Below are positions 1 through 29,094 of a DNA stretch of 49,519 nucleotides, in pieces (within the stretch, counting starts at the first letter, position 1; each line of letters opens with the position of its first letter). The DNA is from an uncultured Methanosarcinales archaeon (GTDB lineage Archaea > Nanobdellota > Nanobdellia > Woesearchaeales > GW2011-AR9). Position numbers and translations under genes: made by a program. The stretch spans positions 5,702 through 55,220 of the forward strand of contig CAYSWQ010000004.1 in the NCBI GenBank assembly GCA_964434885.1, written 5' to 3'. The notes under the pieces are model-generated. The model was not told where the DNA came from and ran no database searches. It worked only from the letters and a program-made list of their open reading frames with translations.

Positions 1-3000
1 ACGGCAAAGGTCGCACCAGCACCTAGTCCAAAGCCATCTACAACTCCACAACAACCAACCTTAACTAGTGTTCCAGCCCAAACTAAGTTTGAAACTGGAG
101 AAAGGATTGTATATTGTAAAGGGGGAATGTGGGAAGCTTGTGGACAAGTTAAAAAAGGAAATATTGTAGAAATAAAAACCAAACATATTGGTACACGTAC
201 TGGAAAATATACTGGAGAAGATTCTACTTGGATTCATTTAGAAATGCATGATGGTAAGAAGTTAAAAATACCAAAAAGCGACGTTGACTTTTTTGAATCA
301 AAAAGAATTGGGGTTTCAGTTTCTATTGATCAAGGTACAGTTGTTAAATTAAGAACTAAAGGAAAATCAGAAGTCGTAGGTACTTTTGATGGCGAGACTG
401 AATTGATGATTTTCATCAAAGATGGAAAAGGTAATGTTAGATCTATTCCAAAAACTAATGTAGATTATTCTACACTTAAACAACATGGTGTTTCTGCATC
501 GATAAAAAAAGGAAGTTATGTTGAAATTTATACTCCGGGTGGAACCCGACATGTGGGAAAATATGATGGAGAAACAGACAAACTCATTTATTTATTGGAT
601 AAAAATGGAAAAAGATTGCCTCCACTTCCTAAACAAAATGCTGATTTGAAAACCATCAGACAATATGGTGTTTCTTCGGATGTGAAGAAAGGAACACATA
701 TTGATTTCCGTAGCAAGAATGGACAAATTAGGTTTAGGGGAAAATATGATGGAGAGACTGATGAGATAATCTATTTGCTAGATAAAAATGGAGAGAGAAA
801 ATCAATTCCTAAACGAAGTGCTGATTTGAAAACCATCAGACAATATGGTGTTTCTTCGGATGTGAAGAAAGGAAGTAAAATTGAACTAACTACTAAAGGG
901 AAGAAAAAATATGTTGGTACATACGAAGGCGAAGATACAACACACATAATAATTAAAGATAAAGATGGAACACATCGAATAGCAAAAGACAATACTAATT
1001 TTAAGACGGTAAAAACTGAATCAACTAAAGGGAAAACAAGTACGACGGATGAATTGGCTCAAGCTCGGAAAAAGGCAACAAGTAAATCAGAACCAGAAAT
1101 TTGTACGATTTCTACAGGTATGGCTACTGGATTGGATCCTAATTTGATGAATTGGGTTGGGCAAGCTGCTTGTGGGTGTAATTGTCCAACTAGTACGGCT
1201 AAATCTACACCTAGTAAAAAGGTAGAAACTGAATCGTTGTATGATGGTTACAGTTATGATGCAGCAAATAATGCTTATGTTAAAAAAAGTAGAATTTGGT
1301 TTGATGATGTAGTAGAAAAAGGAGATCCAAAATTTTCTTCATTAGAATCTAAACGATTAAAAGAAAAAGCTAGAACATCTGAATCTGATATAATGGCATC
1401 TACTCCAAGAGCCAAAGGAGTGGGTGAGGCTGATACTTTAGCTGTGACACCTGGGGCTAAAAAGAAAGTGGGAGAGGCCGATACTGTGGCATCTATTCCT
1501 GGTGCTAGAAAGAGTGTTGGGGAAGCTGATACTTTAGCTGTGACACCTGGGGCTAAAAAGAAAGTTGGTGAAGCTGATACTGTGGCATCTACTCCTGGTG
1601 CGAGGGTAGTTTCTGATGCAGATACTTTGGCTGCTACCCCACAAGCAAAAATCCCAATAGCCACAGGCAAAATCAAAGCAACTCAAGAAAGAATAGTCTT
1701 ATTGTCTTCTAGTGGAGCTAAATATAGAACCACTGTATTAGATTTTAATGGGAATAAATACTTTTTTGATTTGGAAGAAGGTTGGGTGAAAATGGTGGGC
1801 TTTGAAAAAAGACCAGTCATTAGTGAACAATTAATAAAAAAACTTGAAGGGTCGATAGATTTAACACAAACTAAACTAATTGAAAAAGGAGAAGTGATTA
1901 ATTTACGTTCTGTTTATACTCCTAAAAAAACTACGGGAAGTTTGGTGGGAAGTGAAATAGTTCTTCCTGATGGAAGTAAGAAAAATGTAGGTTATCATAT
2001 AGGAAAAGGTACTTTTGGAGATGTTTATTGTTTAGAGATTGTTCCCCCTTGTAAACAAGTAATAAAATTCCCATATCTTCAAAAAGGAGTGAGTAATGCT
2101 GATTCAAGAAGAATTTTTCAGGAAGAAATTGCAATCACTAATCAATTAGATGAAGCAGGGGTTAGAGTAGCTAAAATACGTAGTTCCGAGGGAGGAGTTT
2201 TGATTAAAGATTTTGTAGAAGGAGATACACTGTGGGATTTGAAGGCAACAGGTAGAAGATTGAGTAGTGAACAATTATCGGGTTTGGAGATTTTCTGGAA
2301 AAGTGTAAGGAAAGAAGGAATTCATATGGATGCAACCATTTCAAATTTAAAATGGTTAGAAAAAGAAAAAAAATGGGTAATCTTTGATGCTGGTCCCCGT
2401 GGTCATCCAGGTAATGATTGGCAAATTCGTTTAAATTGGTTACCTCCAGCAGAATATGAAAAGATAGTTAAGAATATCTTAGGGCAAACTCCAAAAACAG
2501 CGGCTCGTCAAATCCCAGTTACTCAAGCAGAACTAGATAAGGTATTAGACTTATTGAAAGCTGCGAGATCAAAAAAACCGATACCAAAATCGTTGGAGAA
2601 TATTTTGGAAGGGGTTTCCCCTTTAGCAGCCAGCCAATACCATGTCGTAGCCAATTTGGAAAGGAAAACATCCAACCTAGAAAAAATATTATTTGATGAA
2701 GTAGAAAAAATCCTTCGAGAAACAACGAGAATAAGTTCTAAAAGTGCAGCTAAAAGTGAAGATATTGGAACAGCAATAAAGAATTACAAAGCCTATTATG
2801 CAGTTGGAGACTTTACTAGAGGTGATACTGAATTAGCTAGAGCATATCTCTTAGCCGATAGGAAGTCTTTATTTTTGGGTAAAGAACTTAGAGCTAAGCA
2901 CAATTCATTAAGTAAAATAGATGAATTGGCCAGGGAAGTTAAAGTTAGTACTAGAGGAAATCAAAGAATTTATAATTTAAAAGGAAAGGAATTCGTTTAT

Positions 3001-6000
3001 GATTCTAAGAAAGGTTGGATTAGACCAGGAGTTGATTCAGATCTGGCATATGTTTTAAAGAAAGAAGAAGACATTTTAACTACTGCTAGAAACCAAGTTA
3101 AGCTGGAAGAATTATTGAAAGCAGAGAAAACACCAAAGAAAAGAACTGTTTCTGATGTTAGTTGTGAATTACCATTGCCAGTAGCTCGAGCAATCCATGG
3201 TTTAGCTTGTGGAAGTGTGGCGGAAACAGCTAGTACTGCTGCTAAAAAAACTTCTACTGCTGTTGAAGGACCAATAGATTTGCGTCAGACTTACACACCT
3301 CCAGGAACAACTGGGCAATTAGCTGGAAGAAAGATAGTGTTGCCAGATGGAAGTACACAAACTTTGGGGAAATACTTGGGTAGTGGTCATTTTGGGGAAG
3401 TATATTGTTTAGATAATACTTGTAAGAAAATAATAAAATTACCTCATGGTAAACATAAATCGTTGGAAGAAACTATTCTGACGTTTAAAGAAGAAGTTGC
3501 TAATTCTGATGCGTTAGAAAGATCTGGGCGAAGAGTAGCTAAGATTGAAGCTGGACCTAACCATAACTATTTGATTAAAGAGTATGTTGAAGGTACCCCT
3601 TTATCTGAAATGAATAAGATAACGGGAGAACAGGCAAAAGATTTAGAAGATTTATTGGTTCAGGCTCGAAAAAGTAATATTGAATTAGATGGAAATATGG
3701 ATAATTATTTCTGGTCTGCTAAAGAAAAAAAATTCATCTTGATTGATACTGGCTCAAGAAGTTCTGTAGGCACAGATTGGAAATTATGGTTTAATGAAAA
3801 ATTGGGTTCGCAAGCAGTTGATCATTTGATAAGTCAAGTTTATACTGGTTCTAGAAAAGTATTACCCAAAAAAAGTGGAATAGTATTGAGTCAGCAAGAT
3901 TATAATAAATTTATTTCAACACTTGATGAAGCAATAAAAAATCGTCGTTATGATACAGCAGAAGTTTTGTTGGGACATATTTCACCAGAACTATTAAGAG
4001 AGTTTAGAGTTAATCAACGTTTATTTGGTTCGGTTTCTGATTCTTCTAGTAAATTGTTATTTCAAGAATTAAAATTATTAATTGGTGGTTCTGTAGATAT
4101 TAAACCAGTAGTTAAAGGACAAAAAACAAATCTTGATGAAGTATCCAAAGCAATCAATGAATATAGATATTTGGAAAGAAATGGTTTAGACTCAACTGAA
4201 TCCTATAAGAAAGCAGTGGCATTGGCAGACCAATATTCTCCTGGAATGGGTAAAAAGATTCCAACATCATATCCATTGACAAAACAAGCAGAATTAGCTG
4301 CAAATGTAAAAATTACTACCAAAGGAGATAAAACAATTTATACTTTAGCTGGGAAAGATTTTGTTTATGATGGGGAGAAATGGGTAAGGGATGGTTTCTT
4401 TGCTAGGATGTTTGGTGGCAAAGCCAATGAGAAAGGAATTGCAGCTTTAGATGCAGCTAGAGAAAAAGCGAAGTTGCAACAGAAATTGAAAGGAGTAAAA
4501 ACACCAGCAGTTAAAAAACCTGTTGTGCAACCGAAAGCAAAAGGATGTGATATAAGATTACCTGCCCCATTACCACAAGCGATTTATGGTTTAGCTTGTG
4601 GAAGTGTGGCGGAAACAGCAGCTAAATCTGGGACTGTAAGTAAAGTAAAAAGTAGTACACCTGCTAAAGTTCTTCCTTTTGATCAGACAAAAATTAGAAC
4701 TCCAGAAAGTGTAGTTACTTCTGTAACTAATTCCCAATTGAGTGTCTTTCTGGGAACTTCAGATAAAAAAGTTAGAACTGGATTGAGTTATCGGGCTCAG
4801 TTAATTGAAAATGGAGATCTAGATGAAGCGAGATTATTAGATTTTAGTTTATTTGACATTGAAGTTAAACGATTAGGTAAAGGAGATGTTAAGAAAGGTA
4901 GAGAGTTGCTGAAAAAGAAAGCAGCTACTTTGCCAGAAGGAGATTTGAAGAAATTAATTAATGAATATCTTAGAACTCAAGGAGATGTTAAAAAAGATAC
5001 TATCTATCAAGCGTTGGTTCGGAAAACTGAAATTAAGACTACAGTAACTAAAAAGGTCGGTACTAAAGCAGATGAAACTATTCCCATAACAGATGATATG
5101 ATTATTAAGCCTACTGCTAAACCACCACCCCTTCCTGCTGATGCTCTTAAATTACCAACACCGAAACGGACTGCGGAAACAGTTGCTTTGAAAACTAAAG
5201 ATGGAGTTAAGTATGATGCTACAGTTTATAATATTGAAGGTACAAAATATTATTTTGATAAAGATAAAGGTTGGCAGAAGAAATATTTCTTTGGAGGTTT
5301 AGATGTTGATGAAGTTGGGTTGAAGAAACGTCTTGCTGCTGCGAGGAAGACTTCTACTAAACCATTGGCACCTAAACGAACCACAGAAACTGTTGCTTTG
5401 AAAACTAAAGAAGGGGTTAATTATGATGCTGCGATTTATGATATTGAAGGGAAAAAATATTATTTTGATAAAGATAAAGGCTGGCAGCAAAAGTACTTCT
5501 TTGGTGGGTTAGATGTTGATGAAGTTGGGTTGAAAGGACGTTTGAATGAAGCAAGGATTAATTCAATAGTTGTGCCGAAGAGACCAGTGGTTTCTACAGC
5601 AGATGAAGTTATTCCTGTAACAGAAAGTATGATTATTAAACCTACTCCTAAGCCAACTGCTAAGCCTCCTCCAATACCTGAAGATACGTTGAAAAAGGCG
5701 GATGAAGTTATTCCTGTAACAGAAAGTATGATCATTAAACCTACTCCTAAGCCAACTGCTAAGCCACCTCCAATACCTGAAGATGCTAAGGCTGCAGCTA
5801 AACCAACGGCAACTAAGAAAACAGATGAAACAATTAGTGTAACTGACGAAATGATTTTGGAAACTACTCCAACTAAATCTACAGTAGCAGAGAAACCTGC
5901 GGCTGTGCCTCCCCCTACTCCTAAACCAACTCCAAAACCTGCTGCTAAGCCAGCTGTGAAAGCAGATGAGGCTGCTGTTTCAACATCCAGAAAAGATGTT

Positions 6001-9000
6001 CAAATCACTGAATCACATACTGGTTCCGATGGAAAAGAATACACATATGATGTATTGAAAGGGAAATGGACTGATGAAAATATTCCAGCTGCAATTAAGA
6101 AAGAATTAGATGCTGTAAGAGCAAAAAGTGCTGCTAAACTTGAAGAAGTGATTAGTGCTACTAAGCCAGCTCCTAAAAAAGTACAAACAAGAACTGCCAC
6201 AGATACTTCTGCTTCACAAGCAACACCAAGAAAAAGAACACCTAATGATGCTAATCCGGGGTTAACTATTCAACAATTGGATGGAGAATACTATATTCTA
6301 GATGATGGAAAATGGAAGTGGGAACAGTATGTTGATGGAGAACTGATGGATGTTAGTCCAGAGTTAAGTAAAGCTCTCAACTTACAAAGAAAATCTCAGT
6401 CCATTAGATTAAAAACAAAGATTGCTGATCCAGTAGCAGATACAGTAGATACGGTACGGAAATCAAAGAGATATGAGGGTTCTCCAATTTACAAGATTGG
6501 AGGAGATAAATATTATTTGGGGAAGGACGGTAAAACTTGGTATAAAAAAGGCCTGATCGGATTCTTAGATAAAAAAGTAGATGATGATTTTCAAGCCGTT
6601 CTGGATTATGCCCATTTAAGGCAAAGTGGAAAAATACCTAAACCAACTGATTTAAGTGATATAGTGGTGCAAACAAAAGCAATGCAAGGATATTCTGGTT
6701 CTCCAGTAGATATACGGGTTTACCAAATGGATGGAAGACAATATATTTTGTTTCCAGATAATTACAAATTGTTAAACCCGAATCAAGGGGAATGGGGAGG
6801 TCCGGGATGGTATGCTTACGACCCAGATGTAAAATTATACCAAATTAGACATATTGACCAATATCCTGACTTTAAAAGTACTAAATTGAGATTGGAAAGG
6901 TTTAGGGCGAATGAAGCTGCGAAACCTAAGGGCAAAAAACCAGTTGTTAGGGGGGTTGCTCCTGCTCCAATTGTAGTAGAATCTCCAATTAGGTTACCAT
7001 CTAAGACAGCCGATAGGCTAAGAAGCACGCCTGCTGCTGCCCCAGTTGAGAATATTAGATCAGGAAAACAAGGAGTAGTTGCAGTTGGAGATTTACATGG
7101 AAGTTATGATAATTTATTTGACGATATTAATAGACAGATTACTGCTTTTGATTCTTCCTCAACACAAAGAATCCTCACTGGAAACAGGAATGATCCTACA
7201 ACTTGGAAGTGGGCCGGAGGAGATGCCACTATTGTTCAAGTAGGAGATATTTATGATCGAGGAGAATTTGGATCATTATTGAGAACTACTTTTAATCGAT
7301 TAGATGATGAAGCAAAAAAATCTGGAGGAAGAGTAATTCGGTTAATGGGCAATCATGAATTGTTTTTTATCGAGGAAGGAAGAAATATAATAAACTATGC
7401 TGATCAAAAGGAAGTGGCCAATTTTGCTGCTCGGTACGCCAAAAAACACGGCGTACAATTGGATGAATTTGAGGCAAGATTAAAATATATTGCAGAAGTA
7501 AAAAAAGGCATTTTAGAAGATATCGCCGCCGGTCGATTGCATGCCAGTGCGGCAGTTGATGGAGAATTATTTACTCATGCCGGAGTTAGTTTAAGAAAAT
7601 TCCCTAACTGGAAAGGCAAAACCGCTTCGGAAATATCAGCCGATATTAATAGTAGATTTAAGAAAGCAGTCAAATCATACCAAGAGAGTGGAAATTATAA
7701 AACAGCTTTTAATGATCCAATCTTTGATATCGGTAAATCTAGAGGAGGAAAAGCCGATCAAGGAGGTATATTCTGGCTAGATAGTGTCGAAATCAGGAAA
7801 TCTTCAGATTGGGATTTGGGATTTAAGCAAATAAGAGGACATGAAGCAGATGTATCTACAAAGACGAAAGGGATTAGGACTGAAAGAACAGAAAATGTAA
7901 TTACAGTTGATGTTGGTAGAACTCAATCTTATGGAGGAGGAAAAGGTGCTTATTACAATAAAAGACCAGCGCAGGCGAAAAAACCGGCTGTGCAGCCGAA
8001 AGCAAAAGGGTGTGAATTACCAGCTTCAGTGGCTAGGGCCGTTTATGGTTTGGCTTGTGGGAGTGCTGTGAAAAAAACAAGTACAGATAGGGTTTATCAG
8101 GCAAGAAATGCTGCAGTGGTAATTAACGAAAAAGGAGATGATTATGTTTTTGAATTAGCAGGGAGAGGTTTTGTTTATGATGCTAATAAAGGATGGGTCA
8201 GGGATGGTTTCTTTGCACGAATGTTTGGAGGGAAAGCCTCACCAAAAGGAATTAAAGAACTGAATAAGGCAAGAAAAGAAGTTAGAATATCTAGAACTAC
8301 TTTTACCTTAGATAAGAAGAAATATGTTTATGATGCCAAAACTAGATCGTGGAAACAAAAACGTTGGTGGTGGACTGACAAAAAAATTACAAATAAAGAC
8401 GCAGAATTTTCAAAATTAGAAAAACAAAAAAGACAAGAGATTTTTACTAATTTCCAATATGAAGGAGATGAAGTAATGGGGGCGATGGCTCAAGAGTATC
8501 CTGAATTAAGAGCTTTATTCGCGGCTGATGCAGGGGTTGGAGAAGGCTACACCATTCAACAACATACTAAAATGGTTTTTGATTTATTTGAACAACATAG
8601 AAGTATTTTAGCAACTGTTCAATCCCCCAAAGGAGTTGATTTGGAAAGATTATTCCCTGCAATGCTTGCTTTACATGATATTGGTAAACCAGAAGCCATA
8701 GCAAAAGGAACAAAACATTTACAGCACCAATATACTTTACCCATTTTAGAAAAAACTTTGAAAAAGATGGGTTTTGGTCAGGCGGAAATTGATTTAGCTA
8801 AAAACTTAGTACGCCATGATACCTTAGGCGATTTAGCAACAGGAAGAATATCTACAATAGATGCTTTTGAAAAGTTGAATAGTTTAGCTAAGAGTAGTGG
8901 AATGGAAGCTGATGAATTCTTAAAGTTACAACAACTATTCTTTACTAGTGATGCAGCTTCTTATGCTTTTGTAAGACAGCAATCTTTTGTGCAAAAAGGT

Positions 9001-15296: not shown

Positions 15297-15298
15297 TT

Positions 15299-16783
15299 TT
15301 ATTTACCTCCTGAGTAATTTGGTGCATCTTTGGTTATCTGGATGTGATGTGGATGGGACTCGACTTGTCCTGCTCCAGAAAGACGCACAAAATCTGCTTT
15401 TTTTCTTAATTCATTCATATCAGCTGCCCCAACATATGCAGCTCCTGCTCTTAACCCCCCAACATACTGAGCAATAACATCAATTAATTTACCTTTGTAA
15501 GGAACTAGCCCTTCGACTCCTTCTGGTACTAATTTTTTACTGGTTTGTTGATACCGATCTCGAGAACCTTTGTGTTCCTGCATCGCTCCCAAAGAACCCA
15601 TTCCCCGATAACTTTTCCATTGTTGGCCGTCAACAAAAACTAACTCTCCTGGGGCTTCTTCAGTACCAGCCAACATGCTTCCCATCATTACTGAATGTGC
15701 TCCGGCCCCAATTGCAATTGGAATATCTCCAGACTGAGTCATTCCTCCATCAGCACAAATTGGTTCATCGGAAACACAAGCACACCGATAAACCGCATCT
15801 ACTTGAGGTGTTCCAACTCCCGCTACAATCCGAGTGGTACAGATAGAACCTGGGCCTTGACCCACTTTAGCTCCATCAGCTCCAGCATCAAGTAGATTGG
15901 AAACTGATTCTGGTTGAGAAATATTGCCTGCAACTACTTCTAACCCAGAATAATCTTTCTTTAGTATTCTTAATGTTTCTAAAACTGGTTTAGAATCTGC
16001 ATGGGCAGTATCAATAACTACAACATCAATATTTTCTTCTATTAATTTCTCTACTCTTTCAAAGGCATCATCGTATACACCAATTGCAGCGGCTACTCTT
16101 AACTGGCCTTGGTCATCTATATTATAAGACGAACCATTACCAAACTTAATTCTTTTAATATCACTTAAGACATAAAGACCAACAACCTGGCTTTGGTTAT
16201 CTACTAAAGGTAAAGATTTCTTCTTGTGTTTTTTCATCTGTTCATAAGCTTGGTCTAAGTTTAATGAAGGATTACCCACAAAAGGCCTTTCAGTCATAAT
16301 TTCTTCAACTCTAACAGAATAATCATCACAAAAATCAAAATCATCTTTGGTAATAATCCCCACTAAAGATCCAGAATCATTGATAACTGGGAAACTATGA
16401 AAAGAATAATCTTTTTGTTCTCGAAGATTAAGAACTTGTTCAACAGTGTTACCCCCATTAATACAAACTGGTTTTTTTATTTTACCATTTAAAAAATATT
16501 TTACTTTGGCTACCTGGTTAGCTTGTTCTTCAGGTGATAAATTTTTATGAATAACTCCTAAACCACCGAGAATTGCCATGGTTCTAGCAGTTTTATGTTC
16601 AGTAACAGTATCCATGGCAGCACTAACTAAAGGAATCTTTAAAGGAATGTTACGAGAAAACTTTGATTCCAAATTAATATCTGCTGGCATGGTTTCAGAG
16701 TAACCAGTTTTTAATTTTACATCTCCATAGGTTAAGGACAAACCCAAACGATCCATCTTTCTAAAAAAATCTTCTTTACTCAT
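15299..16783 (-). CDS. guaB: IMP dehydrogenase with CBS pair
   Basis: [18 protein letters not shown] (catalytic Cys), ADGG, YRGMGS; start moved to ATG 16783, downstream of GAGGTGA. Confidence 0.97.
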
Positions 16784-16797
16784 TTTTATCACCTCAT

Positions 16798-18309
16798 TTA
16801 TTTGTGTTTATGGAATTTATCTACTTCATCTTTAAGCCAATCTGGCCAGAATTCTTCATCAATAGGATAACTAGCATCTAAAGCTTGAAATGATCCTGGA
16901 CCAGTTACTTTTTCAATTCTTTCTTGAAGATTGAATTTAACTTTCAAATTATAATCTCTATCTTCAACATTTTTCAATCGAGTAATAAATAAATTAGCTA
17001 CTGCTTCATTAATTTCTTCAGTTGTTCTTCCATAAGGAGAATCTCCGTTAAAAGCCCGATGGACTGCTAATTCTTCTAGACATTCTCTTCCATTATGCCA
17101 ACCTTTGAAAGAAGGAAAAACCATGGGTGCATAAGAGATCCAAAATTCTAAGTCTTTTGCCCCACTATTGTAGACGACCCAAATAGAACCTCCTTCTCCG
17201 ACACTACCTTTAACAACACTATCATCACCCATGACAATTTTTTGATCCCTCAATAATGAATCGATTCCGCTAAATTTTAATCCTACTTCCATGGTTCGTT
17301 TTCTTCTTTCGGATTCTTGAAAAGTTCGTACTGCTTGAGCTAATTTGATAAGAGCTGGACGAAGTGGTTTTTTTAAACCATCGGCAATCCCTACAGATAC
17401 CCCCCATCCAGATTCAGGATTAGGGATGACAATGTCTGCGCCAGGATCACCATAAAGATCTACTAACTCTAAACCTAGTGCTCTTCTAATTTGTAAATTT
17501 TCTTTTCCCCTAAACATCGATGCCACATTACCGAAATAAACTCCTTGAAAAATATCTGGCATCGGTTCTTCTTCTCTTAATCTTCTAGTTTCTGGACCAT
17601 TGGAAAATGAACAAATGGTCATCTCTGCACCATCATATTCTCTTTCTATTCTAGTACCTAATCTTTTATGAGAGCAAGATTCTGAACTAACTACAAAATT
17701 TTCCCCTACTTTACCATAACATAAAGGCTCAAATGCTTTATCATCATTCAAAGTAACTAAACGTGTTTCTCTTCCATCATAAACCAAAGCAGACAAAGCA
17801 AAAGTGGCTCGACCATGTAATTTGTCTACTAATCTTTTACCAGCCTCAAAAGTTACTTTCCCATTTTCAGAAATATATTTATGTAATAATGCTCCAACGA
17901 CTTCAGTTTTATTTCCGGTTTCAAAATCATAATCTGCTTCTAATTCTGCTTTAATATCATCTTCCATTACTAAATAACCATCCATGGTCAAAACAACTTC
18001 GAAAGAAGAATTAGATTTGGGACAAATACGAATTGGTTCAGCGTTTCTTTCTTCGGGAATTTTATTTTTAGTGTAACCCACATTACCAATTGCTGCTACT
18101 GGTTCTAAATCTTGATAAGCTTGCATAATTTCAGGATTAATTACATCACCAATTCTTCCTAAACCTTTGTGAATGTAAATACCTTTTCCATTACCGACGG
18201 CAATTCCTGCGCTGGCTTTACCTCGATGTTGAACCATCCCAGTTACTAAAAAATTAGTCTGAACTAACTCTTTATCACCTAAACCATATACTCCTGTAAT
18301 CCCATCCAT
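16798..18309 (-). CDS. purF: Amidophosphoribosyltransferase homolog with degenerate glutaminase domain
   Basis: QHRGKASAGI, IPNPESG, RTFQ, GDDSVVKG PRT loop; N-terminus MDGITG instead of MCGI. Confidence 0.88.
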   Translation of the reverse strand: MDGITGVYGLGDKELVQTNFLVTGMVQHRGKASAGIAVGNGKGIYIHKGLGRIGDVINPEIMQAYQDLEPVAAIGNVGYTKNKIPEERNAEPIRICPKSNSSFEVVLTMDGYLVMEDDIKAELEADYDFETGNKTEVVGALLHKYISENGKVTFEAGKRLVDKLHGRATFALSALVYDGRETRLVTLNDDKAFEPLCYGKVGENFVVSSESCSHKRLGTRIEREYDGAEMTICSFSNGPETRRLREEEPMPDIFQGVYFGNVASMFRGKENLQIRRALGLELVDLYGDPGADIVIPNPESGWGVSVGIADGLKKPLRPALIKLAQAVRTFQESERRKRTMEVGLKFSGIDSLLRDQKIVMGDDSVVKGSVGEGGSIWVVYNSGAKDLEFWISYAPMVFPSFKGWHNGRECLEELAVHRAFNGDSPYGRTTEEINEAVANLFITRLKNVEDRDYNLKVKFNLQERIEKVTGPGSFQALDASYPIDEEFWPDWLKDEVDKFHKHK

Positions 18310-18323
18310 TTTATTTACCTCAC

Positions 18324-19649
18324 CTACATTATCTTATGTCCAAAGAACCTTCTACCTGTTGGTTTCTTTCCAGTTTTTGGATCTTTCTTTTTGTTTCTGT
18401 ATAATTCGTACTGCTCTGGAGTCATGGTAAAAACCATGGGAATATTATGCTCTCGAGCTAATCTCTTGACTAGTGCATCACCCATACATCCACCAGGTTG
18501 GACTACAACCTTGGGAATCAAAGCAGAATCATAGCCTGGGTTAAAATTGTCTCTTTTCGGGATGAAAGTTTCTTTACCTTTGCGATAAGTAAATTCCCGA
18601 GCTCCAAATTGAGGGTTAAGACGATCAATGCCAGTAGTTTCCACAAAGCCATCTGGTTTGGGATAAAAAGCATCCGAAAAAGCAACTAATTCCAATGGTG
18701 TCTTGATAACTCCTTCAAAATCTTTTCGAGTAAAAGGTGTGTCATATAACACCCGAGCCCATTCTTTTTCATCACCAGCACTCAATGCAGCATAGACTGA
18801 ATCTTCTAACATATTTCTTGCTTTACGAGCAGCTACTACTCGTGCACCACATCCATCTCCTAAACCAGCAATAGCTCCATCGTGCACATAAAAGATTAGA
18901 TTTGAAGATAAATAAATCGCCGCATTGCCGGCAAAACCTATGTCATCAACAAGTTGTGTTCCTAATTGGTTGATGTTAGAATCTTCGTCTTTTTTTCTTC
19001 GGACTAGCACAGCTTCTTTTTGTACATCAAATGGTTTTTCTCTTTCTTGGATGAGGAAATTTCCTTGAGCCACTGGATCTAAAGTGTATCCCCAAGGATC
19101 AATGTCTTGCATAGATAATTCTCCAGTATGAATTAAAAAACGATTAGCATGAGAACCAATCTGAGAATCATTACTTAATAATTCAGCAGTTCCTTTTTCA
19201 TAACTAGGAGCAACGACTGCTTCTAAAAAGACGCGATCTAAAAATTGAGCAGTTTCATATTCTAATTCAGTGTTTAAGGCCCAAACTCCGCCAAAAGGAG
19301 AATTAACATCTCCGGCTACGGCTTTGATTACTGCTTCTAATTGAGTTTTACCCTTCGCTAAAACAACTGGACGAGTATGTTTGGCGGCGACAGCTAAATA
19401 AGGTGTATTTGTATCTTGATAAATTTCATTTAGGCCCACACTAGTTCTTAAACAAGCACTAATATCTCCAATGTTAGTCCAACCAGGAAGACGAGCTTGT
19501 TTTCCCAGATCTTGCTCTGCAGAATACAAAGGTTTACCGCGAGGATTGATTTTGCTATCGTGATAACCAACCATTAATTGGGAAGCGAGATGTCCATTTT
19601 CTCCCCCTTTGAGTTCCAAAAATTCTTCCATGGAAATTAAATAACCCAT
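18324..19649 (-). CDS. purH: Stand-alone AICAR transformylase (PurH C-terminal domain), divergent
   Basis: AKHTRP, SPFGG, EAVVAPSY, SDAFYP, VVQPGG, GRRFFGH; no IMP cyclohydrolase/MGS domain. Confidence 0.85.
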   Translation of the reverse strand: MGYLISMEEFLELKGGENGHLASQLMVGYHDSKINPRGKPLYSAEQDLGKQARLPGWTNIGDISACLRTSVGLNEIYQDTNTPYLAVAAKHTRPVVLAKGKTQLEAVIKAVAGDVNSPFGGVWALNTELEYETAQFLDRVFLEAVVAPSYEKGTAELLSNDSQIGSHANRFLIHTGELSMQDIDPWGYTLDPVAQGNFLIQEREKPFDVQKEAVLVRRKKDEDSNINQLGTQLVDDIGFAGNAAIYLSSNLIFYVHDGAIAGLGDGCGARVVAARKARNMLEDSVYAALSAGDEKEWARVLYDTPFTRKDFEGVIKTPLELVAFSDAFYPKPDGFVETTGIDRLNPQFGAREFTYRKGKETFIPKRDNFNPGYDSALIPKVVVQPGGCMGDALVKRLAREHNIPMVFTMTPEQYELYRNKKKDPKTGKKPTGRRFFGHKIM

Positions 19650-19651
19650 TT

Positions 19652-20524
19652 TTATTTACCTCTTTCATATTTGTTTTTTACATTAAAGAAAAGTTCGCCC
19701 TCATTTCTGTCTCGGAAAACAGAAACTACTCCTACCCTAAGATCATCATTAGAAATGACAGCTCCTTCTTTTGGTCCTAATGAATCATAGATCTGATGAG
19801 TTAGTTCTCCGGGCCCAAATTGAGTTAAAGGAATTTCTAACGGACTTCCAGAAAAATGAGGGATTGGTTTATGTGATTCAACATTTTCTCCAGTATAAGT
19901 AGGCAACATACGTGCCTGGCCAGCATTGAGTGGAAAATTAAAATATTGTCTCTCGGCTTGACCGTGATTAGAAAAAATAATACACATGGCTGCTTGATCT
20001 TGACCTAAAACTGCACTAATTCTGGGAGTGTTAGTAGGATAATCTGGTTCAAAGGAAGTAAGATCAATTCTTTTAAAGTTTAGATTTCCATGTTCATCTT
20101 GATAGAAATTATCCATCATTACTGGGCCATTTTCAAAAGAAGTCATTAACAAATCTAAAGGCTCGGGATTTGTTCCTTGATTTCTTAATCTCTGATGAAT
20201 TTTAAAGATGTGATTAGTTTGAGCACCATTAGAGATTACAATATTGCCGTTATCCAATAGATCTAACGCAGTATAATAAATTAAAGCAGGATTACCTTGT
20301 CCAGGTTTAGCATCAGTTGAAGGAACAATGTCAACCATACCGTTAGTTTCATTTAATTCTAAAAATCTAGCTCTGCTTCCTGGGCTTCTACCAGTAGGAA
20401 AATAAGCAGCGACATCATATTTTTCATCTGGAGTACGACCAACAATAATTGCTCTTCCCCAGTATTCTCCTTGAACAAGCGGTTCAATGGAAGTAATATT
20501 TTTTTCAATCAATTCTATTGTCAT
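19652..20524 (-). CDS. purO: IMP cyclohydrolase, PurO-like Ntn family
   Basis: YWGRAIIVG, AYFPTGRSPGSRAR, LIYY, SNGAQT, FEPDYPTNTPRISA. Confidence 0.87.
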   Translation of the reverse strand: MTIELIEKNITSIEPLVQGEYWGRAIIVGRTPDEKYDVAAYFPTGRSPGSRARFLELNETNGMVDIVPSTDAKPGQGNPALIYYTALDLLDNGNIVISNGAQTNHIFKIHQRLRNQGTNPEPLDLLMTSFENGPVMMDNFYQDEHGNLNFKRIDLTSFEPDYPTNTPRISAVLGQDQAAMCIIFSNHGQAERQYFNFPLNAGQARMLPTYTGENVESHKPIPHFSGSPLEIPLTQFGPGELTHQIYDSLGPKEGAVISNDDLRVGVVSVFRDRNEGELFFNVKNKYERGK

Positions 20525-20528
20525 TTTA

Positions 20529-21986
20529 TTATACCTCTATGTTTGAATTACTTTTTCCAATCAATTCTTCATATTCATCTAAAGCTGGACCAACCTGCTC
20601 TACTAGAAAATCTTCCACTTGTTGTTCTGCTGCCCCAGCAAATTTTTCTGGATGTTCCAGATACTCATTTAATTCTACTTCAGTTAAAGGAAAGGCTTTG
20701 TCTTCCCCTAATCTAGTAAATAAATCATTATCTCTACCTTCTTCTTTGATAGCTTTACCAGCAGCAAAAGAATGTTGTTTAATTATTTCATGTAAATCTT
20801 GACGGTCATAACCTTCTTTAACTAAATCCATTATAATTTCTTCACTAGCCATAAAAGGTAATTCTTCATTCAATAATTTTCGTAATCTTTGAGGATAAAA
20901 AGTTAATTTATTTCTATCTGGATGGTCTTTTTGATCAGTAATATTGTTGCCTAAAATCAAACTAGCGTCAGTTAATAAAAAAGCTTGAGGAATATCTATC
21001 CGCCGAATAGCAGAATCATCCAAAGTTCTTTCAAACCATTGGTTAGCTGCAGTGTCATAAAAATTAGGAACTAAATTTCTTAATTTTCTAGTCAAGCCAC
21101 TTAACCTTTCACTACGCATTGGATTTCTTTTGTAAGGCATAGCACTACTGCCTGTTTGATTTAATTCAAAAGGTTCATCCACACATTTTTGGTTAGAAAG
21201 TAACCTAAGATCTCCAGCAAATTTACCTAAAGAAACACCAATGCCGGCTAAAGCTTCAGCTACTTTAGAATCAAATTTTCTGGGATACGTCTGTCCAGTT
21301 ACTGGAAAAACATCTTCAAAACCTAATTTTTGAGCCACCAAAAGATCTAATTCTCTAACTTTGGAATAATTGCCATCAAATAATTTCAAATAACTAGCTT
21401 GAGTACCGACAGTTCCTTTGGCACCTCTTGCTCGAAAATCAAGATTGTCGATAGCTTCTAAATCCATCAATAAATCTTGGATATATAAAGTCATTCTTTT
21501 TCCGATAGTGGTTGGTTGGGCAGGTTGATAATGGGTGTATCCCAGGCACACTAAATCTTTGGTTTCTTCTGCCACCATAGCCAGATTATAAATAAGATTA
21601 ACTAAGCCAGTTTTTACTAATTTAGTAGCTTCGCGCATTTGAATTAAATCCGTATTGCAACCAACAAATTGAGAAGTTGCCCCTAAGTGAATAATTCCTT
21701 TGGCATTTGGACATTGTCGACCATATTCATAAACGTGGGCCATTACATCATGTCGAATTTCTTTTTCTTTTGCTTGAGCAATAGCATAATCAATGGTTTG
21801 TTGTCCAGCTTGCATTTCTTCAACTAGTTCGGGAGTGATTCTTTCTAAACCAAGTTCCATCTGCGCTTCAGCTAAAGCGGTCCAACATTTTCTCCAAGTT
21901 TTAAATTTAAAATCTGGAGAAAAAAGATACTGCATCTCTTTGCTAGTGTATCTGCTGACTAAAGGTTCTTGATATTGTTCATTCAT
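20529..21986 (-). CDS. purB: Adenylosuccinate lyase
   Basis: PLVSRYTSKEM, RHDVMAH, HLGATS, THYQPAQ, GSSAMPYKRNPMRSE. Confidence 0.97.
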   Translation of the reverse strand: MNEQYQEPLVSRYTSKEMQYLFSPDFKFKTWRKCWTALAEAQMELGLERITPELVEEMQAGQQTIDYAIAQAKEKEIRHDVMAHVYEYGRQCPNAKGIIHLGATSQFVGCNTDLIQMREATKLVKTGLVNLIYNLAMVAEETKDLVCLGYTHYQPAQPTTIGKRMTLYIQDLLMDLEAIDNLDFRARGAKGTVGTQASYLKLFDGNYSKVRELDLLVAQKLGFEDVFPVTGQTYPRKFDSKVAEALAGIGVSLGKFAGDLRLLSNQKCVDEPFELNQTGSSAMPYKRNPMRSERLSGLTRKLRNLVPNFYDTAANQWFERTLDDSAIRRIDIPQAFLLTDASLILGNNITDQKDHPDRNKLTFYPQRLRKLLNEELPFMASEEIIMDLVKEGYDRQDLHEIIKQHSFAAGKAIKEEGRDNDLFTRLGEDKAFPLTEVELNEYLEHPEKFAGAAEQQVEDFLVEQVGPALDEYEELIGKSNSNIEV

Positions 21987-23086
21987 TGTAAATTCATCAC
22001 CACTTTTTGCAAACCATCGACTACTCTTTCATCTCTTGGTCTCATATCTGGTTCAAATCTTTTTCCCAGTAAATGTTGAATCCCTTCAATGTACCTAATT
22101 CCAATTTCAATTCTTTGTTCATCTGTGTAGCCAGAATCTCCCTGAGAAAAACCTCGGGCAAATTCTTTGGAATAAGATACAGGATTAACTTCTTCTATTT
22201 TTCCAGCAATCCGATTTGCTAATTGGGTTTGATAATCTTCCAATTTCCAAAAGCGAGAAGAATCCATCGTGTATAATTCATCTTGAGAAACAATCTCTCC
22301 ATCTTGATTAAGACCATGTTCGGTTTTAGTGTCAACTAGAATTAATCCTTTGTCTAATAAAAACTGAGTTACCATACCAAAAGCAACTAGAGAACTATTG
22401 ATGATCTGAGTATATTGGGCCCCGGTACAAATTCCCTTTTCAAGCAAGTATTTAGGAGAGACTGACTCGTCATGTAAATCTGATTTAGTGGAAGGGGTAT
22501 CCATCACATAAGGTAAATGTTCGTTTGTAAGTAGGCCTTCTGGTAATTTGTGTCCACAAAATTCTCTTTTGCCTTGGACATAATGTTGGTATAAAGAAGT
22601 AGAAGTGGAACTTTTTGCCATAAATGCCCTTAAAACATTTTCTAAACCAATTTGTGTTAGATTTTCCGCGGCAATTACTACAGCATTAGGATCAGTTAAG
22701 TTATATTGGGAAATTCCCAAGGTGTCCTGAACCATCTCTCGCATGAAATTATGGTTTAAAGCTAGGATTTGATCTTTGAAGGGGATTTCTCCTCGAGTGA
22801 TATCATGAGTAGAAATCCGAGGCGTTCTAACCATTATCCGAGCTGGTCGGTCAAACATACGTAAAGGAGAATTAACAAAATCTACTGTTTGGTCCTCCTT
22901 TTTGAAAGATCCTCGGCCACCAAAAACAGAATCCGAAACTTTTCCCGGTTTTACTTGATAGCCTTTTAGTTCAGGAATTTCTCCAGAATCAATGATTTCT
23001 TGAGTAGAAGAAATAGTTCCTTCTTGAGCAATATACTTTTCAACCAAATCTCTGGCTTGATTGGTAGTTAGTAATTCTTTATTCAT
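21983..23086 (-). CDS. purC: SAICAR synthetase
   Basis: GKVSD, RISTHD, IPFKDQIL, TPSTK, LVDTKTEHG, DELYTMDSSRFW, SKEFAR; start at ATG 23086 after SD. Confidence 0.93.
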   Translation of the reverse strand: MNKELLTTNQARDLVEKYIAQEGTISSTQEIIDSGEIPELKGYQVKPGKVSDSVFGGRGSFKKEDQTVDFVNSPLRMFDRPARIMVRTPRISTHDITRGEIPFKDQILALNHNFMREMVQDTLGISQYNLTDPNAVVIAAENLTQIGLENVLRAFMAKSSTSTSLYQHYVQGKREFCGHKLPEGLLTNEHLPYVMDTPSTKSDLHDESVSPKYLLEKGICTGAQYTQIINSSLVAFGMVTQFLLDKGLILVDTKTEHGLNQDGEIVSQDELYTMDSSRFWKLEDYQTQLANRIAGKIEEVNPVSYSKEFARGFSQGDSGYTDEQRIEIGIRYIEGIQHLLGKRFEPDMRPRDERVVDGLQKVVMNLQ

Positions 23087-23087
23087 T

Positions 23088-23633
23088 TTATTCACCTCTT
23101 AAACGAGCCAAATATTTTTGGCCGATTCTTTCATTGTCTCGATGTAAATTCATTTCTTTAGTAGCATTAGTTTGAAATAATATATCTCGATACTCTGGAT
23201 TGTGGTGAGAAAACATTTGAGCTGCGAACCTCCCCACATTTGCAGGTTTGGCAACATAAGCGTTTGAACTACCTGGGGGATTTGTTAAACAAGATTCATT
23301 TCTCCCGTCTGGAGGACAGCTAACTACTGGATGAACAGATTTCCAAGAAGCAGTACCAGATAAAGCATCAGTTCCACCAGCTACCCCCACTATCAAGACT
23401 GGATGATCTAAACCATTGTACTCATGGAGTACTTGATCTAGCTCTGCTGCTTGTTTGTGGGCAGAAGCAATGTGAACTCCATAAGGGATATCAAATTTCT
23501 CTAAACTAGAAACAATCTGTTCGATATGTGATGGCTTATCTCCTTTTGGTTGGTCATCACTACCTGAACCAGCTAAAATGGCAACGTAACCTTTGCCTTC
23601 TTCAATTTTTTCTATTAAATATTCGTCTATCAT
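23088..23633 (-). CDS. purE: AIR carboxylase, class II-like PurE
   Basis: GSGSD, SAHK, VAGGTDALSG, PVVSCPP; start at ATG 23633 after SD. Confidence 0.9.
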   Translation of the reverse strand: MIDEYLIEKIEEGKGYVAILAGSGSDDQPKGDKPSHIEQIVSSLEKFDIPYGVHIASAHKQAAELDQVLHEYNGLDHPVLIVGVAGGTDALSGTASWKSVHPVVSCPPDGRNESCLTNPPGSSNAYVAKPANVGRFAAQMFSHHNPEYRDILFQTNATKEMNLHRDNERIGQKYLARLRGE

Positions 23634-23642
23634 TTTTATCAC

Positions 23643-24563
23643 CTAACAAATTTTTAATTCTCGAGCATATGGAGTTAATACGGGATCAGTTCCTCCTAAT
23701 TTGAAATATTTTTGTAATTCATGTACTGAATTCAAATTATTCAGTAGCGTTGCTTGAGTTACTTTACTTACTCCTTTATTTGAAACATAATCAGCAATTA
23801 AAGTTACATCTGATTCAAAATCTCCAGCTACATCAATAACTAAAGAGTTGGGTTTAACATCCTCTGCTTTAATTTTAAATCCTGGTTTGCCTACCGCACT
23901 AACTAAGATATCTGCTTGAGACATTAAATGTTTGAGATAATCGGGAGGAGAGTTTTCATCAACTGGTGTAACAGTAGCTTTTTCATTTCTAAACATTAAA
24001 GATAAAGGCAACCCAACTATGTGGGTGTAATTGACAACCACCACCTTATGGCCTTTTAGATAACCTTCTTGTTTTTGATAATCTTCTTGAAAAAAATCCG
24101 AGTGGAAGTGACGCTCACAAATCTTCATTACTGCTTTAGGCGTACAAGGGACAATTAATTTTGGTTCAGTTTGGTTTTCTACTGTTTTTCGATAATGGGT
24201 GAGATCTCCCATCCAGCTAGGGTGTAAACCTTCAACATCTTTTAAGGGATTTATGTGATACATAATCTTTTGATCCAAACTAGCATCAGAACCAAAAGGA
24301 TGTAGAACGAACAAACCAGTGACCACTGGATTTTTTTCATACGCTCTAATGGCTGATTCAATATCTTTTTCATTTACTTTTTCTCGACTAATAGTTACTC
24401 TAATTTGTTGACAATTAGATACCATATAATCGGCATATTCTTGAGACTCTGGATTTGATTCAGGGTGTTCTAAAAGAATCATTACTGGATCATATTCGGC
24501 AAATTGTGGTTTGACTTTTCTTAAATAATGTTTAGCAATCTTCCCCACAAATTTTTTAGTCAT
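23643..24563 (-). CDS. folD: Methylenetetrahydrofolate dehydrogenase, FolD family, resembling the monofunctional MTD1 type
   Basis: KDVEGLHP, VPCTPKAV, ADILVSAVG, VIDVA, SKVTQATLLNNL. Confidence 0.85.
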   Translation of the reverse strand: MTKKFVGKIAKHYLRKVKPQFAEYDPVMILLEHPESNPESQEYADYMVSNCQQIRVTISREKVNEKDIESAIRAYEKNPVVTGLFVLHPFGSDASLDQKIMYHINPLKDVEGLHPSWMGDLTHYRKTVENQTEPKLIVPCTPKAVMKICERHFHSDFFQEDYQKQEGYLKGHKVVVVNYTHIVGLPLSLMFRNEKATVTPVDENSPPDYLKHLMSQADILVSAVGKPGFKIKAEDVKPNSLVIDVAGDFESDVTLIADYVSNKGVSKVTQATLLNNLNSVHELQKYFKLGGTDPVLTPYARELKIC

Positions 24564-24567
24564 TTTA

Positions 24568-25407
24568 TTACCTCACCATATAGCCACCATAAGGCATTGG
24601 TTTTCCATCAACATAAACTCTTCTCCATTCTTGAAAAAAAGATTTTTCGTTTCCTAAAGCAATTCGGCCTTCCGCAATCAAACTTAAAGCAGTTGTTAAA
24701 GCTGGCCAATCACTTTCTTTTTTCTGTCTTTCTTGATGGCCGTCAGAAACATCATTTCCATTGACATATTCGCGAAGTAACAAAGGATCACGAAAATGAT
24801 ATTCTACTTTCACTAAAGGACCACTAGTAATTATTTCACCATGGTCTTCTCCATCATCAACGATAATAACAGAGGATCTTGTTGCTGGTTCGGCCGCTAA
24901 GATGGCATCATAAACAGCATCGGCTCCGATAAACTTTCTTGATTTTCTAGGTTCTAAATCATTTAGAATCGTTAGGTCAGCTGGATGAACATTGATTATT
25001 TTATCTGGATAAGAATCGAGTAATGGTTGTTTAACTAATCTCATGTAACCCCCCAAGACAATTAAATCAATTTCTTTTTTTTGTTCATCTTCAAAGCGAT
25101 GTAAACCATCAACAATCATCTGATTATATTGTAGGCTTCTTCTTTGGTATTCAGCAATTTTATTTGGGTCGTGTTGAGCTTTTTTCCAACTGCCACAGAA
25201 TTTAAATCCACTAACTCCTAAATCTAATCGCGGAGTGTCTAATAATTCTTCCAATTGGAATAAAGAAGGTTTTTTCTTATCAGAAAAGATTAATCGAGGA
25301 GGAATTATTTTAGCACATTGTTGTAAGTTGGTGCCGCTACCAGAACCAAATCCAACCCAGCAAAAATCTTCTGGTTTTCCTGAATATAATGGGGTGGTTT
25401 TATCCAT
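24568..25407 (-). CDS. purN: Phosphoribosylglycinamide formyltransferase (folate-dependent)
   Basis: GSGSGTNL, LIVLGGYMRLV, IINVHPA, DDGEDHGEII. Confidence 0.9.
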   Translation of the reverse strand: MDKTTPLYSGKPEDFCWVGFGSGSGTNLQQCAKIIPPRLIFSDKKKPSLFQLEELLDTPRLDLGVSGFKFCGSWKKAQHDPNKIAEYQRRSLQYNQMIVDGLHRFEDEQKKEIDLIVLGGYMRLVKQPLLDSYPDKIINVHPADLTILNDLEPRKSRKFIGADAVYDAILAAEPATRSSVIIVDDGEDHGEIITSGPLVKVEYHFRDPLLLREYVNGNDVSDGHQERQKKESDWPALTTALSLIAEGRIALGNEKSFFQEWRRVYVDGKPMPYGGYMVR

Positions 25408-26740: not shown

Positions 26741-26759
26741 TGTTTTCACCTGTATTTAA

Positions 26760-28256: not shown

Positions 28257-28257
28257 T

Positions 28258-29094
28258 TTATTCACCTCGAATTAAATTTTCATAAACATAATTAACACCA
28301 TTTCTGAAGATTTGTAAACCTGCTCCTTCTTCAGGTAATTTTTTTCCTTGTCTTTTTAATTCTGATTTACGTCTAGTCCAACCATCTTGACCATAAGCAG
28401 AAATAGCTCTTTCTGGATGGGGCATCATCAATAAAACTTGTTCAGAAGCTAAACCAGCGATGTCTTCTACGGAGCCATTTGGGTTAATTGGATATTCTTC
28501 ATTAGCAGGTGTGCCATCTGAGTGAACATATTTTAGAGCAACTAATCCTTGTTGCTGGATCTTTTCTAAATTATCTGGAGTTGTTTGAAAATTGCCTTCT
28601 CCATGACCAACAGGAATATTTGGCAGAATTTTGCCTTCCAGACCTTGGAGCCAATGAGATTTTCCGCTAACGACTTGTAAATGGATGTTACCTCGGTCTT
28701 CATAGCGAGCAGAATCATTGAAAGAATAAGCTACTTCCGGAGCATCAAAAATATTTCCAGTAACCGGAATTAAATTGAGAAAGGTGCTGATTTGATTACC
28801 ATTACAAACACCAAAAATTAATTTTCCCTGATCCAGATGTGAATTGAGGGCGGCTCGCAAGCCAGAGTGGTAAATAATTTTTTTAGCGAAAATGTTACCA
28901 GCCCCACAATCATCACCAAAAGAAAAACCACCAGGAAAACCCAAAATATGATACTGTCTTAAGTCTTCTGGTTGATGCAATAATTCGTTCAGGTGAACCC
29001 TTTCTGCTTGAGCTCCGGCTAGTTGAAAGGCTGATTGTAATTCACGATCACAATTGATTCCATACCCAGTGAGAATAGCAGCTTTAACTGTCAT
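28258..29094 (-). CDS. purQ: FGAM synthase glutaminase subunit
   Basis: GYGINCDRE, PGGFSFGD, GVCNG, HGEG, MMPHPER. Confidence 0.96.
   Translation of the reverse strand: MTVKAAILTGYGINCDRELQSAFQLAGAQAERVHLNELLHQPEDLRQYHILGFPGGFSFGDDCGAGNIFAKKIIYHSGLRAALNSHLDQGKLIFGVCNGNQISTFLNLIPVTGNIFDAPEVAYSFNDSARYEDRGNIHLQVVSGKSHWLQGLEGKILPNIPVGHGEGNFQTTPDNLEKIQQQGLVALKYVHSDGTPANEEYPINPNGSVEDIAGLASEQVLLMMPHPERAISAYGQDGWTRRKSELKRQGKKLPEEGAGLQIFRNGVNYVYENLIRGE

Follow-up and report, generated by a model that had tools for sequence, protein, structure and literature searches.

What does a protein gain from carrying the same short, cysteine-bracketed peptide at several of the borders between its modules? The question is raised by a stretch of 49,519 nucleotides from the genome of an uncultured archaeon (assembly GCA_964434885.1, contig CAYSWQ010000004.1, positions 5,702 to 55,220; this whole stretch is called the window below), which begins within a giant modular gene. 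Three loops of the encoded protein end in the residues GLAC and a fourth is a variant of them. An initial annotation had taken all four as joints with two roles, namely disulfide-closed loops that are nicked and then reduced to release effectors, as in AB toxins, and places of DNA homology at which cassettes are shuffled. All four loops prove to be homologous: they are copies of a single joint element, some 35 residues long, and are more alike than chance would make them. As for its role, we favour a linker joint that is stapled by a disulfide, stays alike throughout the gene and serves as a common tag; taken together, these points have somewhat less than an even chance.

Copies of one joint element

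When the sequence was read again, all four loop peptides were found in frame 1 at the places where they had been reported (Table 1). The joints share one layout: a Lys/Pro-rich lead, a Cys, a hydrophobic loop (14-30 residues, with [HYF]-G-L-[AG] at its end), a second Cys, Gly-Ser, and a trail rich in Ala, Thr, Ser and Lys. Among the three GLAC copies 13 columns are invariant. In internal BLAST comparisons, the region of loop 2 matches that of loop 3 with 67.6% identity over 37 residues (E 3.6e-11) and loop 1 matches loop 3 with 62.5% identity over 32 residues (E 4.7e-8), while at the DNA level the loops are covered by two repeat families, D7 and D11. A fifth loop (C-x30-C-GSAV) closes the piece of the gene that lies upstream of the window and is a DNA-level homologue of the variant loop at 1102-1185. 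Beyond the three known copies, a six-frame regular-expression search of the whole 1.07-Mb genome found no GLAC motif.

The chain is otherwise poor in Cys. The part encoded in the window has 18 Cys in 3,421 residues, ten of them within the four loops, and the remaining eight also form close pairs (39/47, 677/684, 1136/1141 and 3062/3063). Each loop had been said to come right after a module, and this holds for kinase 1, kinase 2, the Metallophos domain and an array of five repeats of ~60 residues: loops 1 and 2 are the ends of two paralogous kinase modules, loop 3 follows Metallophos and the variant loop follows the array. The name 'Sm' given to that array was not confirmed, the hints to its identity all being sub-threshold (the best Pfam hint is Rpp29 with E 0.039, below the cut-off). 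Similarly, the third copy had been described as the lead of copy 2 joined to the core of copy 1; the pattern is there, but common descent with different parts diverging explains it equally well.

Three other readings of the motif were rejected. A lipobox ([LVI][ASTVI][GAS]C after an N-terminal signal peptide) does not fit a motif with Gly at -3 that lies thousands of residues inside the chain. The GLAC loops have just two Cys each for binding Zn, and class III (prepilin) signals or signal-peptidase A-x-A sites would call for a hydrophobic stretch that is not adequately present.

Table 1. Features of the giant gene, its neighbour and two DsbA-like proteins (positions in the window unless a genome contig is named; residue numbers are those of the chain encoded in the window; pLDDT, predicted local distance difference test)
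Feature	Position	Strand	Basis
Giant modular gene, 3' part, 3,421 codons, no start	1..10266	+	Reading frame; upstream continuation via a 55-nt exact overlap
Amplified cassette: TAKVAPAPS linker, five ~60-residue repeats (residues 47-338), first half of the variant Cys loop	1..1157	+	Contigs of sequencing runs; internal repeats
Variant Cys loop, C-x22-C-G-C-N-C (CTIST...VGQAACGCNC)	1102..1185	+	Last copy after the repeat cassette; DNA-level homology to the upstream-piece loop
Kinase-like domain 1, residues 633-812	1897..2436	+	35-55% identity to kinase 2; RIO1 hint below cut-off
Kinase module 1, helical tail and small beta-hairpin unit	2839..3162	+	54% identity to marine fragment P0008
Joint loop 1, CELPLPVARAIHGLACGS, then VAETA trail to 3231	3163..3216	+	Repeat family D7; pLDDT 33-43
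Kinase-like domain 2, residues 1092-1265, minimal kinase fold	3274..3795	+	Model and structure matches
Kinase module 2, helical tail and beta-hairpin unit	4210..4497	+	Strands at residues 1437-1463, pLDDT 80-92
Lead of joint 2, Lys/Pro-rich KKPVVQPKAKG	4513..4545	+	Family D11, 89% DNA identity to 7978-8015
Joint loop 2, CDIRLPAPLPQAIYGLACGS, then VAETA trail to 4620	4546..4605	+	pLDDT 35-38
Metallophosphatase core	7075..7392	+	PF00149, E 1.1e-6, above cut-off; GDxHG, GDxxDRG and GNHE motifs
Lead of joint 3, KKPAVQPKAKG	7978..8010	+	Family D11
Joint loop 3, CELPASVARAVYGLACGS	8011..8064	+	Sequence re-read; loop alignment
Beta-hairpin unit right after joint 3, order swapped relative to module 2	8077..8295	+	Residues 2693-2765 against 1422-1494, 54% identity, E 8.8e-20
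ADP-ribosylglycohydrolase gene downstream of the giant gene	10691..11602	+	PF03747, E 1.3e-47
Membrane-anchored DsbA-like CPFC proteins (L022, L023)	G000:C6:31508-31993 and G000:C13:2879-3358		Thioredoxin-fold matches

Outside this gene the element is rare. A HMMER search of 1.84 billion cluster representatives, with residues 1040-1560 as the query, gave 26 proteins at E<=0.001, most of which match the N-lobe of the kinase only. The sole match that covers both the tail and the loop is P0008, a marine fragment of 262 residues in which both Cys are kept (C-x15-GLGC-AGAAETA). Among the four complete homologues of the giant protein, P0002 and P0007 carry, at a boundary, a hydrophobic loop of the form CC-x12-15-C-x2-C, P0006 shows just a CxxC and P0017 has no such loop in its cargo part, so that no boundary motif common to the whole family was found. 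Searches with the loops themselves gave nothing further: an alignment of the three loops, used in a word-indexed search of proteins of 91-2,000 residues, gave 4,728 candidates and none at E<=10, and an alignment of tail plus loop, used in a locus search, confirmed no locus in genome contigs (237 pattern matches) or in metagenome contigs (596 pattern matches). A degenerate DNA pattern for GL[AG]C[GA][SG][VA]AETA matched 12 loci in metagenome contigs, which were rejected as chance matches (58-70% G+C, without an upstream Cys). The GLAC form is nearly private to this lineage. Homologues of the gene were counted in 2 of 41 relatives, in 2 of 401 members of a phylum sample (one of them weak, at 16.9 bits) and in 4 of 114 members of the family (one of them that same weak match).

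In addition, three marine proteins of ~1,200 residues (P0022, P0024 and P0027) have a C-terminal kinase of the same type as those of the giant gene. They also show a 27-residue hydrophobic, Gly-rich stretch between two Cys, ending GLGC-FG-x-ETS. This may be a longer form related to the joint loop, or the likeness may be coincidental.

P0008 is an orthologue of module 1, and comparing it with the two modules separates the history of the loop from that of the tail. Over 105 tail columns module 1 is closer to the orthologue than to its own paralogue (54% identity to P0008, 40% to module 2). Over 23 loop columns the order is reversed, with 74% identity between the paralogues and 48% to the orthologue. 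Counted by sites, those at which the paralogues agree and those at which the orthologues agree stand at 7:1 in the loop and 11:26 in the tail (Fisher p=0.004). Furthermore, the codons for GLACGS in loop 3 depart from those in loops 1 and 2 at two synonymous sites only, and the loop is the best-conserved stretch of kinase modules that are 35% identical overall. From the reversed identities and the purely synonymous change we infer that the loop copies have been homogenised and that selection acts on the peptide as well. The joint element is very probably selected as a functional unit.

The DNA identity on which the initial annotation had drawn tells less. It is exact as reported, over 34 bp (3197-3230 = 4586-4619), with the same codon at 10 of 11 positions. 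Because identical residues share their codon at a background of 0.54 elsewhere in the modules, p is only ~0.012, and the 34-bp identity on its own is marginal, weak evidence.

Breakpoints at the joints and the extent of the gene

The gene is larger than the window shows. The window (G000:C4:5702-55220) begins immediately 3' of a scaffold gap of 100 N (G000:C4:5602-5701), and the 55 bases that precede this gap are exactly the first 55 bases of the window. Upstream of the gap the frame is open for 1,866 codons, back to the start of the contig, where it is still open. Since the frame continues across a gap flanked by an overlap, the gap is spurious and the giant protein is no shorter than 5,269 residues. 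In the joined protein, residues 1-650 align with residues 328-1017 of the giant homologues P0002, P0006 and P0017 (the N-terminal alignment with P0007 is weak, at 19% identity and E 1.4e-4), and thus ~330-380 N-terminal residues are missing at the contig end. A tblastn search found no other contig carrying an N-terminal piece in this genome, which is 92% complete.

Rearrangements of the gene were sought in contigs of four marine sequencing runs from two studies (Logan contigs, not reads) that were aligned to it. In all four runs a contig joins position 1157 to position 1 via an identical stretch of 31 extra letters, and the contig depth over 1-1041 is 2.1-3.3 times that of the rest of the gene. 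This junction and the raised depth mean that population DNA has the cassette of 1,157 nt ~3 times in tandem and that the assembly collapsed these copies, hence the scaffold gap. When the junction is translated by hand (...NLMNW-VGMAGGCGSAV-TAKVAPAPS...), a chimeric sixth loop is read, which combines the initial half of the variant loop with an end resembling that of the upstream loop. The cassette has its breakpoints in two older loops that have diverged but share microhomology, in each case between VG and the second Cys.

A second trace of rearrangement is found at loop 3. Here a joint block (equivalent to residues 1500-1535) is followed, no more than five residues on, by a hairpin block (equivalent to residues 1422-1494) that precedes the joint in module 2. 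Repeat-number variants also occur within the array region, with junctions 638->819 and 1476->1573 (the latter in run X2). No junction from loop 1 to loop 2 was found among the run contigs, which end at the 34-bp repeat. Junctions 2986->4452 and 3653->4675 were discarded; their sides are just 21-22 letters and they were treated as foreign or repeat artefacts. Among the sequencing runs that hold the gene, no RNA runs are listed. The proposal that the joints are sites of recombination keeps part of its ground: concerted loops, a cassette junction inside a loop and blocks that abut after the GLACGS of loop 3 speak for it, but the 34-bp identity is only marginal.

Probable disulfides, exposure and rival roles

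Would the two Cys of a joint be bonded? Sec-type signal peptides are present on all four complete homologues (P0002, P0006, P0007 and P0017), each with a basic n-region followed by a hydrophobic core and, at the end, small-x-small. Across five family members, every Cys lies at most 35 residues from another (86/86 in total; 26/26, 22/22, 10/10, 16/16 and 12/12), and for each protein none of 2,000 shuffles reaches full pairing. Such universal near pairing is the pattern of local disulfides in exported proteins. The genome also encodes two DsbA-like CPFC proteins of the thioredoxin fold (E 1e-37 to 1e-38), each preceded by one membrane helix; no VKOR was found in the genome at its 92% completeness. 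Together, the signal peptides of the homologues, the universal local pairing and the DsbA-like oxidases make extracellular local disulfides likely, and the Cys pairs of the joints would probably close such a disulfide outside the cell. One of the two DsbA-like proteins is fused to a C-terminal cupredoxin-like tail.

The loops stand out from their surroundings in hydropathy. Kyte-Doolittle values are +0.4 to +1.0 in the loops, as against -0.8 to -2.1 in the 25 residues preceding them. In the AlphaFold2 model the blocks of loop 1 have a pLDDT of 33-43 and those of loop 2 of 35-38, as against 80-92 in the adjoining beta-hairpin. With such low values in hydrophilic linkers, nothing in the model suggests that the loops are buried.

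The reading that we favour can be set out in four steps. The joints would be disulfide-stapled hydrophobic peptide loops, exposed on hydrophilic tethers between the enzyme modules of a Sec-secreted protein. Gene conversion or selection keeps the joints of one gene alike, and duplications and rearrangements of modules have broken at them. The common tag at each module boundary would be read by one trans-acting partner, which we propose because of the conserved hydrophobic core, the two-Cys constraint and the concerted evolution of the copies. Finally, this partner would most likely be a processing protease, in which case the disulfide would hold the nicked chain together. That the joint is a processing tag in particular is possible but rather doubtful.

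Several points weigh against this reading. Loops 1 and 2 belong to one tandem duplication of a module, so their placements are not independent, and at least five other module boundaries of the giant protein have no joint loop. To judge from the four complete homologues, the joint element is not essential to the family; the GLAC form is present only in this gene and the GLGC form in one orthologous fragment. The alignment over the loops had just three rows, so that their low pLDDT is weak evidence for exposure. The copy number of the cassette is taken from Logan contig depth and not from reads, and breakpoints in linkers are also expected from selection for viable chimeras alone. Moreover, the disulfide, the cleavage and the partner are all predictions.

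AB toxins such as diphtheria toxin, Pseudomonas exotoxin A, the Shiga toxin A chain and the clostridial neurotoxins carry disulfide-bracketed nicking loops. An unlikely rival to the common tag is that the joints work in this way: a protease cuts inside the loop, the disulfide holds the modules together, and reduction in the target cytoplasm frees each effector. Here, too, the Cys are 14-30 residues apart, within the classic range of toxin loops, in an apparently exposed loop at the boundary of a functional part; Arg is present in all three GLAC loops and in that of P0008; local Cys pairing is universal in the family; and the protein is probably secreted yet carries ATP-dependent enzymes of an intracellular type, as AB toxins carry enzymes that act inside another cell. 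However, the variant loop (1102-1173) and the loops of P0002 and P0007 contain neither Lys nor Arg, P0017 has no such loop, and no R-x-x-R, furin-like or other defined site was seen. The flanking leads and linkers are richer in Lys than the loops. Judged by sequence, leads such as KKPVVQPKAKG, which lie outside the disulfide, look like more obvious targets for a trypsin-like protease, and a cut there would free the modules without any reduction step. Across the 5,269 residues, neither a Pfam or NCBIfam protease domain nor an HExxH or HxxEH motif was found, the first ~330-380 residues of the protein being outside the contig; there is one HExxH motif in the homologue P0002. The joints further differ from AB-toxin loops in that several occur per chain, between cargo modules and not between A and B parts, and in that their core is a conserved hydrophobic GLAC and not a basic protease site, with no relation in sequence or fold. 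The nick-and-reduce release of effectors that the initial annotation had put forward is not supported by any test.

It is also quite unlikely that the joints are plain structural staples, in which the disulfide stiffens an exposed linker and shields it from adventitious extracellular proteolysis with no specific recognition. All Cys of the family are in local pairs, including the C-x4-8-C of the kinase N-lobe, and stapling would then be the general rule. A parallel is the Cys pair of the CdiA-CT entry domain, described as stabilising the domain and slowing its degradation (PMC9424206). On the other hand, a mere staple does not need 13 invariant positions, a hydrophobic [HYF]GL[AG]C core or copies that evolve in concert. 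If the joints were staples only, they would be a lineage-specific curiosity in an interesting gene.

Could the joints have no role at all? As functionless linker remnants they would have been carried along by module duplication and homogenised by gene conversion. Loops 1 and 2 as the ends of a single tandem duplication, the 34-bp identity and the concerted pattern all fit conversion without selection, and the motif is nearly unique to the lineage. Remnants are nonetheless very unlikely: both Cys and the GL.C/AETA core survive in the orthologue despite 48% loop identity, the GLACGS of loop 3 has changed synonymously only, the loop is better conserved than any other stretch of modules that share 35% of their residues, and related Cys-bracketed loops are found in two of the four distant homologues. 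The last rival, that the joints are membrane-active elements which, like fusion loops or translocation hairpins, help the modules to engage or cross a target membrane, is highly improbable: all five loops are hydrophobic islands, the P0002 and P0007 variants are rich in Gly, Ala and Val, and P0022, P0024 and P0027 have their 27-residue hydrophobic stretch between Cys, but a transmembrane hairpin would need more than the 14-16 residues of the GLAC loops, which include Pro, Arg, His and Glu, and the P0022-type resemblance may be chance.

Enzyme modules, known systems and neighbouring genes

Between the joints lie enzyme-like modules. The two kinase modules (residues 633-1081 and 1092-1544) are paralogous, with 35% identity over 450 aligned positions. 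Residues 1040-1560 were modelled with AlphaFold2 from an alignment of 24 rows, and the core of kinase 2 reaches a pLDDT of 73-97. The best Protein Data Bank matches of this model are OspG and NleH1/2, small effector kinases that are injected into host cells (E 3e-6 to 2.5e-5, template modelling score on the target 0.60-0.63), followed by RIO2. In the kinase alignment the residues K, E, D and N are nearly invariant, the Pkinase cut-off of Pfam is passed by the homologue P0002, and there are weak sequence hints of RIO1, ABC1 and Bud32. For the modules (not the loops), OspG/NleH and RIO/Bud32 kinases are the closest known counterparts. They differ from the kinases here at 17-20% identity, and the latter add a long helical tail and a C-x4-8-C pair in the N-lobe that is conserved in all homologues. 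The Metallophos match of Pfam covers residues 2359-2464, where motifs of the PPP type can be read in the sequence. Short tandem peptide repeats lie at 1420-1604 and 5068-5973, as 16-residue VGEADT..TPGAKK units and Pro-rich ADEVIPVTESMIIKPTPKP units, and the number of copies differs from one sequencing run to another.

How do the joints compare with known boundary elements? MARTX toxins are giant secreted chains with several enzymatic effector modules in a row and unstructured linkers between them, which resembles the present gene, and their linkers are cut after Leu without a disulfide. The cysteine protease domain that cuts these linkers in cis, Peptidase_C80, gave no Pfam match in the window part, in the 1,866 upstream residues or in the homologues (the first ~330-380 residues are outside the contig), and the N- and C-terminal glycine-rich RtxA repeats gave no Pfam match either. 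In polymorphic toxins, the limit of the exchangeable cargo is marked by a short conserved motif, at which the chain is also processed; examples are the VENN motif of CdiA and, in Rhs proteins, the pre-toxin boundary motif PxxxxDPxGL. As in those toxins, a conserved N-terminal region is combined here with variable cargo: the N-terminal region is common only to the giant protein and its four archaeal homologues, and the cargo that follows it comprises one or two kinases, an HExxH region in P0002 only and a phosphatase only here.

The differences from polymorphic toxins are equally clear. The protein is archaeal and, by its homologues, Sec-secreted, with no two-partner secretion; its motif is repeated within one chain and is not family-wide; and its Cys pair belongs to a linker and not to a helical entry domain. 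Since neither the defining parts of MARTX nor a family-wide boundary motif was found, the joints of the giant gene stand apart from MARTX and from families with such a motif, and we do not class them as members of either. For CdiA, VENN-motif cleavage and a conserved Cys55-Cys65 pair (in the entry domain of CdiA-CT EC3006) are reported to govern stability and translocation, the latter being promoted by the pair, and most families of CdiA-CT entry domains are described as containing a Cys pair (PMC9424206). Polymorphic toxin loci have been predicted in archaea, DPANN included (PMC6393860). The SPEARE giants of Nanohaloarchaeota provide a DPANN precedent for giant secreted proteins; they are described as multi-thousand-residue secreted proteins thought to act on the host cell (PMC6642349).

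No sequence relation to SPEARE proteins was found, and the domains differ, being kinases, a PPP-type phosphatase and an HD-like domain here.

The boldest reading of the locus joins all of these parts. The gene would encode a DPANN Sec-secreted multi-effector protein of ~6,000 residues whose joints double as a nick-and-reduce latch in the host cell and as a site of cassette recombination. As cargo the protein would carry a pair of kinases like OspG/NleH, a phosphatase of the PPP type, an HD-like hydrolase and, at its end, a domain paired with an ADP-ribosylglycohydrolase. This is improbable as a whole. If true, archaea would have a counterpart that unites AB-toxin loops with VENN-type boundaries. 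Should the joints serve for processing and recombination, archaea would have arrived independently at the 'conserved boundary motif' logic known from bacterial polymorphic toxins. The wider interest is that the manipulation of hosts by DPANN archaea is largely unexplained, and a secreted chain of intracellular-type enzymes with repeated joints offers concrete, testable handles (e.g. oxidised Cys pairs, cut sites in the chain and cassettes that vary between strains).

The neighbouring ADP-ribosylglycohydrolase gene bears on the terminal domain. In a second genome (G004) such a gene also adjoins the homologue of the giant gene (L003:2-1093(-)), with 51% identity and E 5e-107 to the one in the window, and there the counterpart of the C-terminal domain of ~350 residues is a separate open reading frame of 406 residues. 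In polymorphic toxin systems a cognate immunity gene directly follows the terminal toxin domain, and the arrangement here suggests that the ADP-ribosylglycohydrolase and the C-terminal domain of the giant protein may be a toxin-immunity pair. An ADP-ribosyltransferase identity of the domain is unconfirmed: its AlphaFold2 model has a mean pLDDT of 62.6, with the conserved stretch below 50; a fold search (VIA-align) gave helical-bundle matches only, at Z <=7.8; and the Atlas leads (ART-PolyVal, DarT/PARP and Arr) scored 0.81-0.83, below a meaningful level.

Next to the ADP-ribosylglycohydrolase gene, at 11647-12324 of the window, an open reading frame of 225 residues combines a signal peptide with a canonical LTSC lipobox and numerous Cys at regular spacing, with no Pfam family; by sequence it looks like a Cys-rich repeat lipoprotein. 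Purine biosynthesis genes lie on the same contig, as do genes for topoisomerase VI B, a family B polymerase and an archaeal-type IMP cyclohydrolase. The purine row is nearly complete and lies on the reverse strand of the window at 13899-32125 (purA, guaB, purF-like, purH/purO-type, purB, purC, folD, purD and purL), which for a DPANN-type genome of 1.07 Mb is more biosynthetic capacity than usual.

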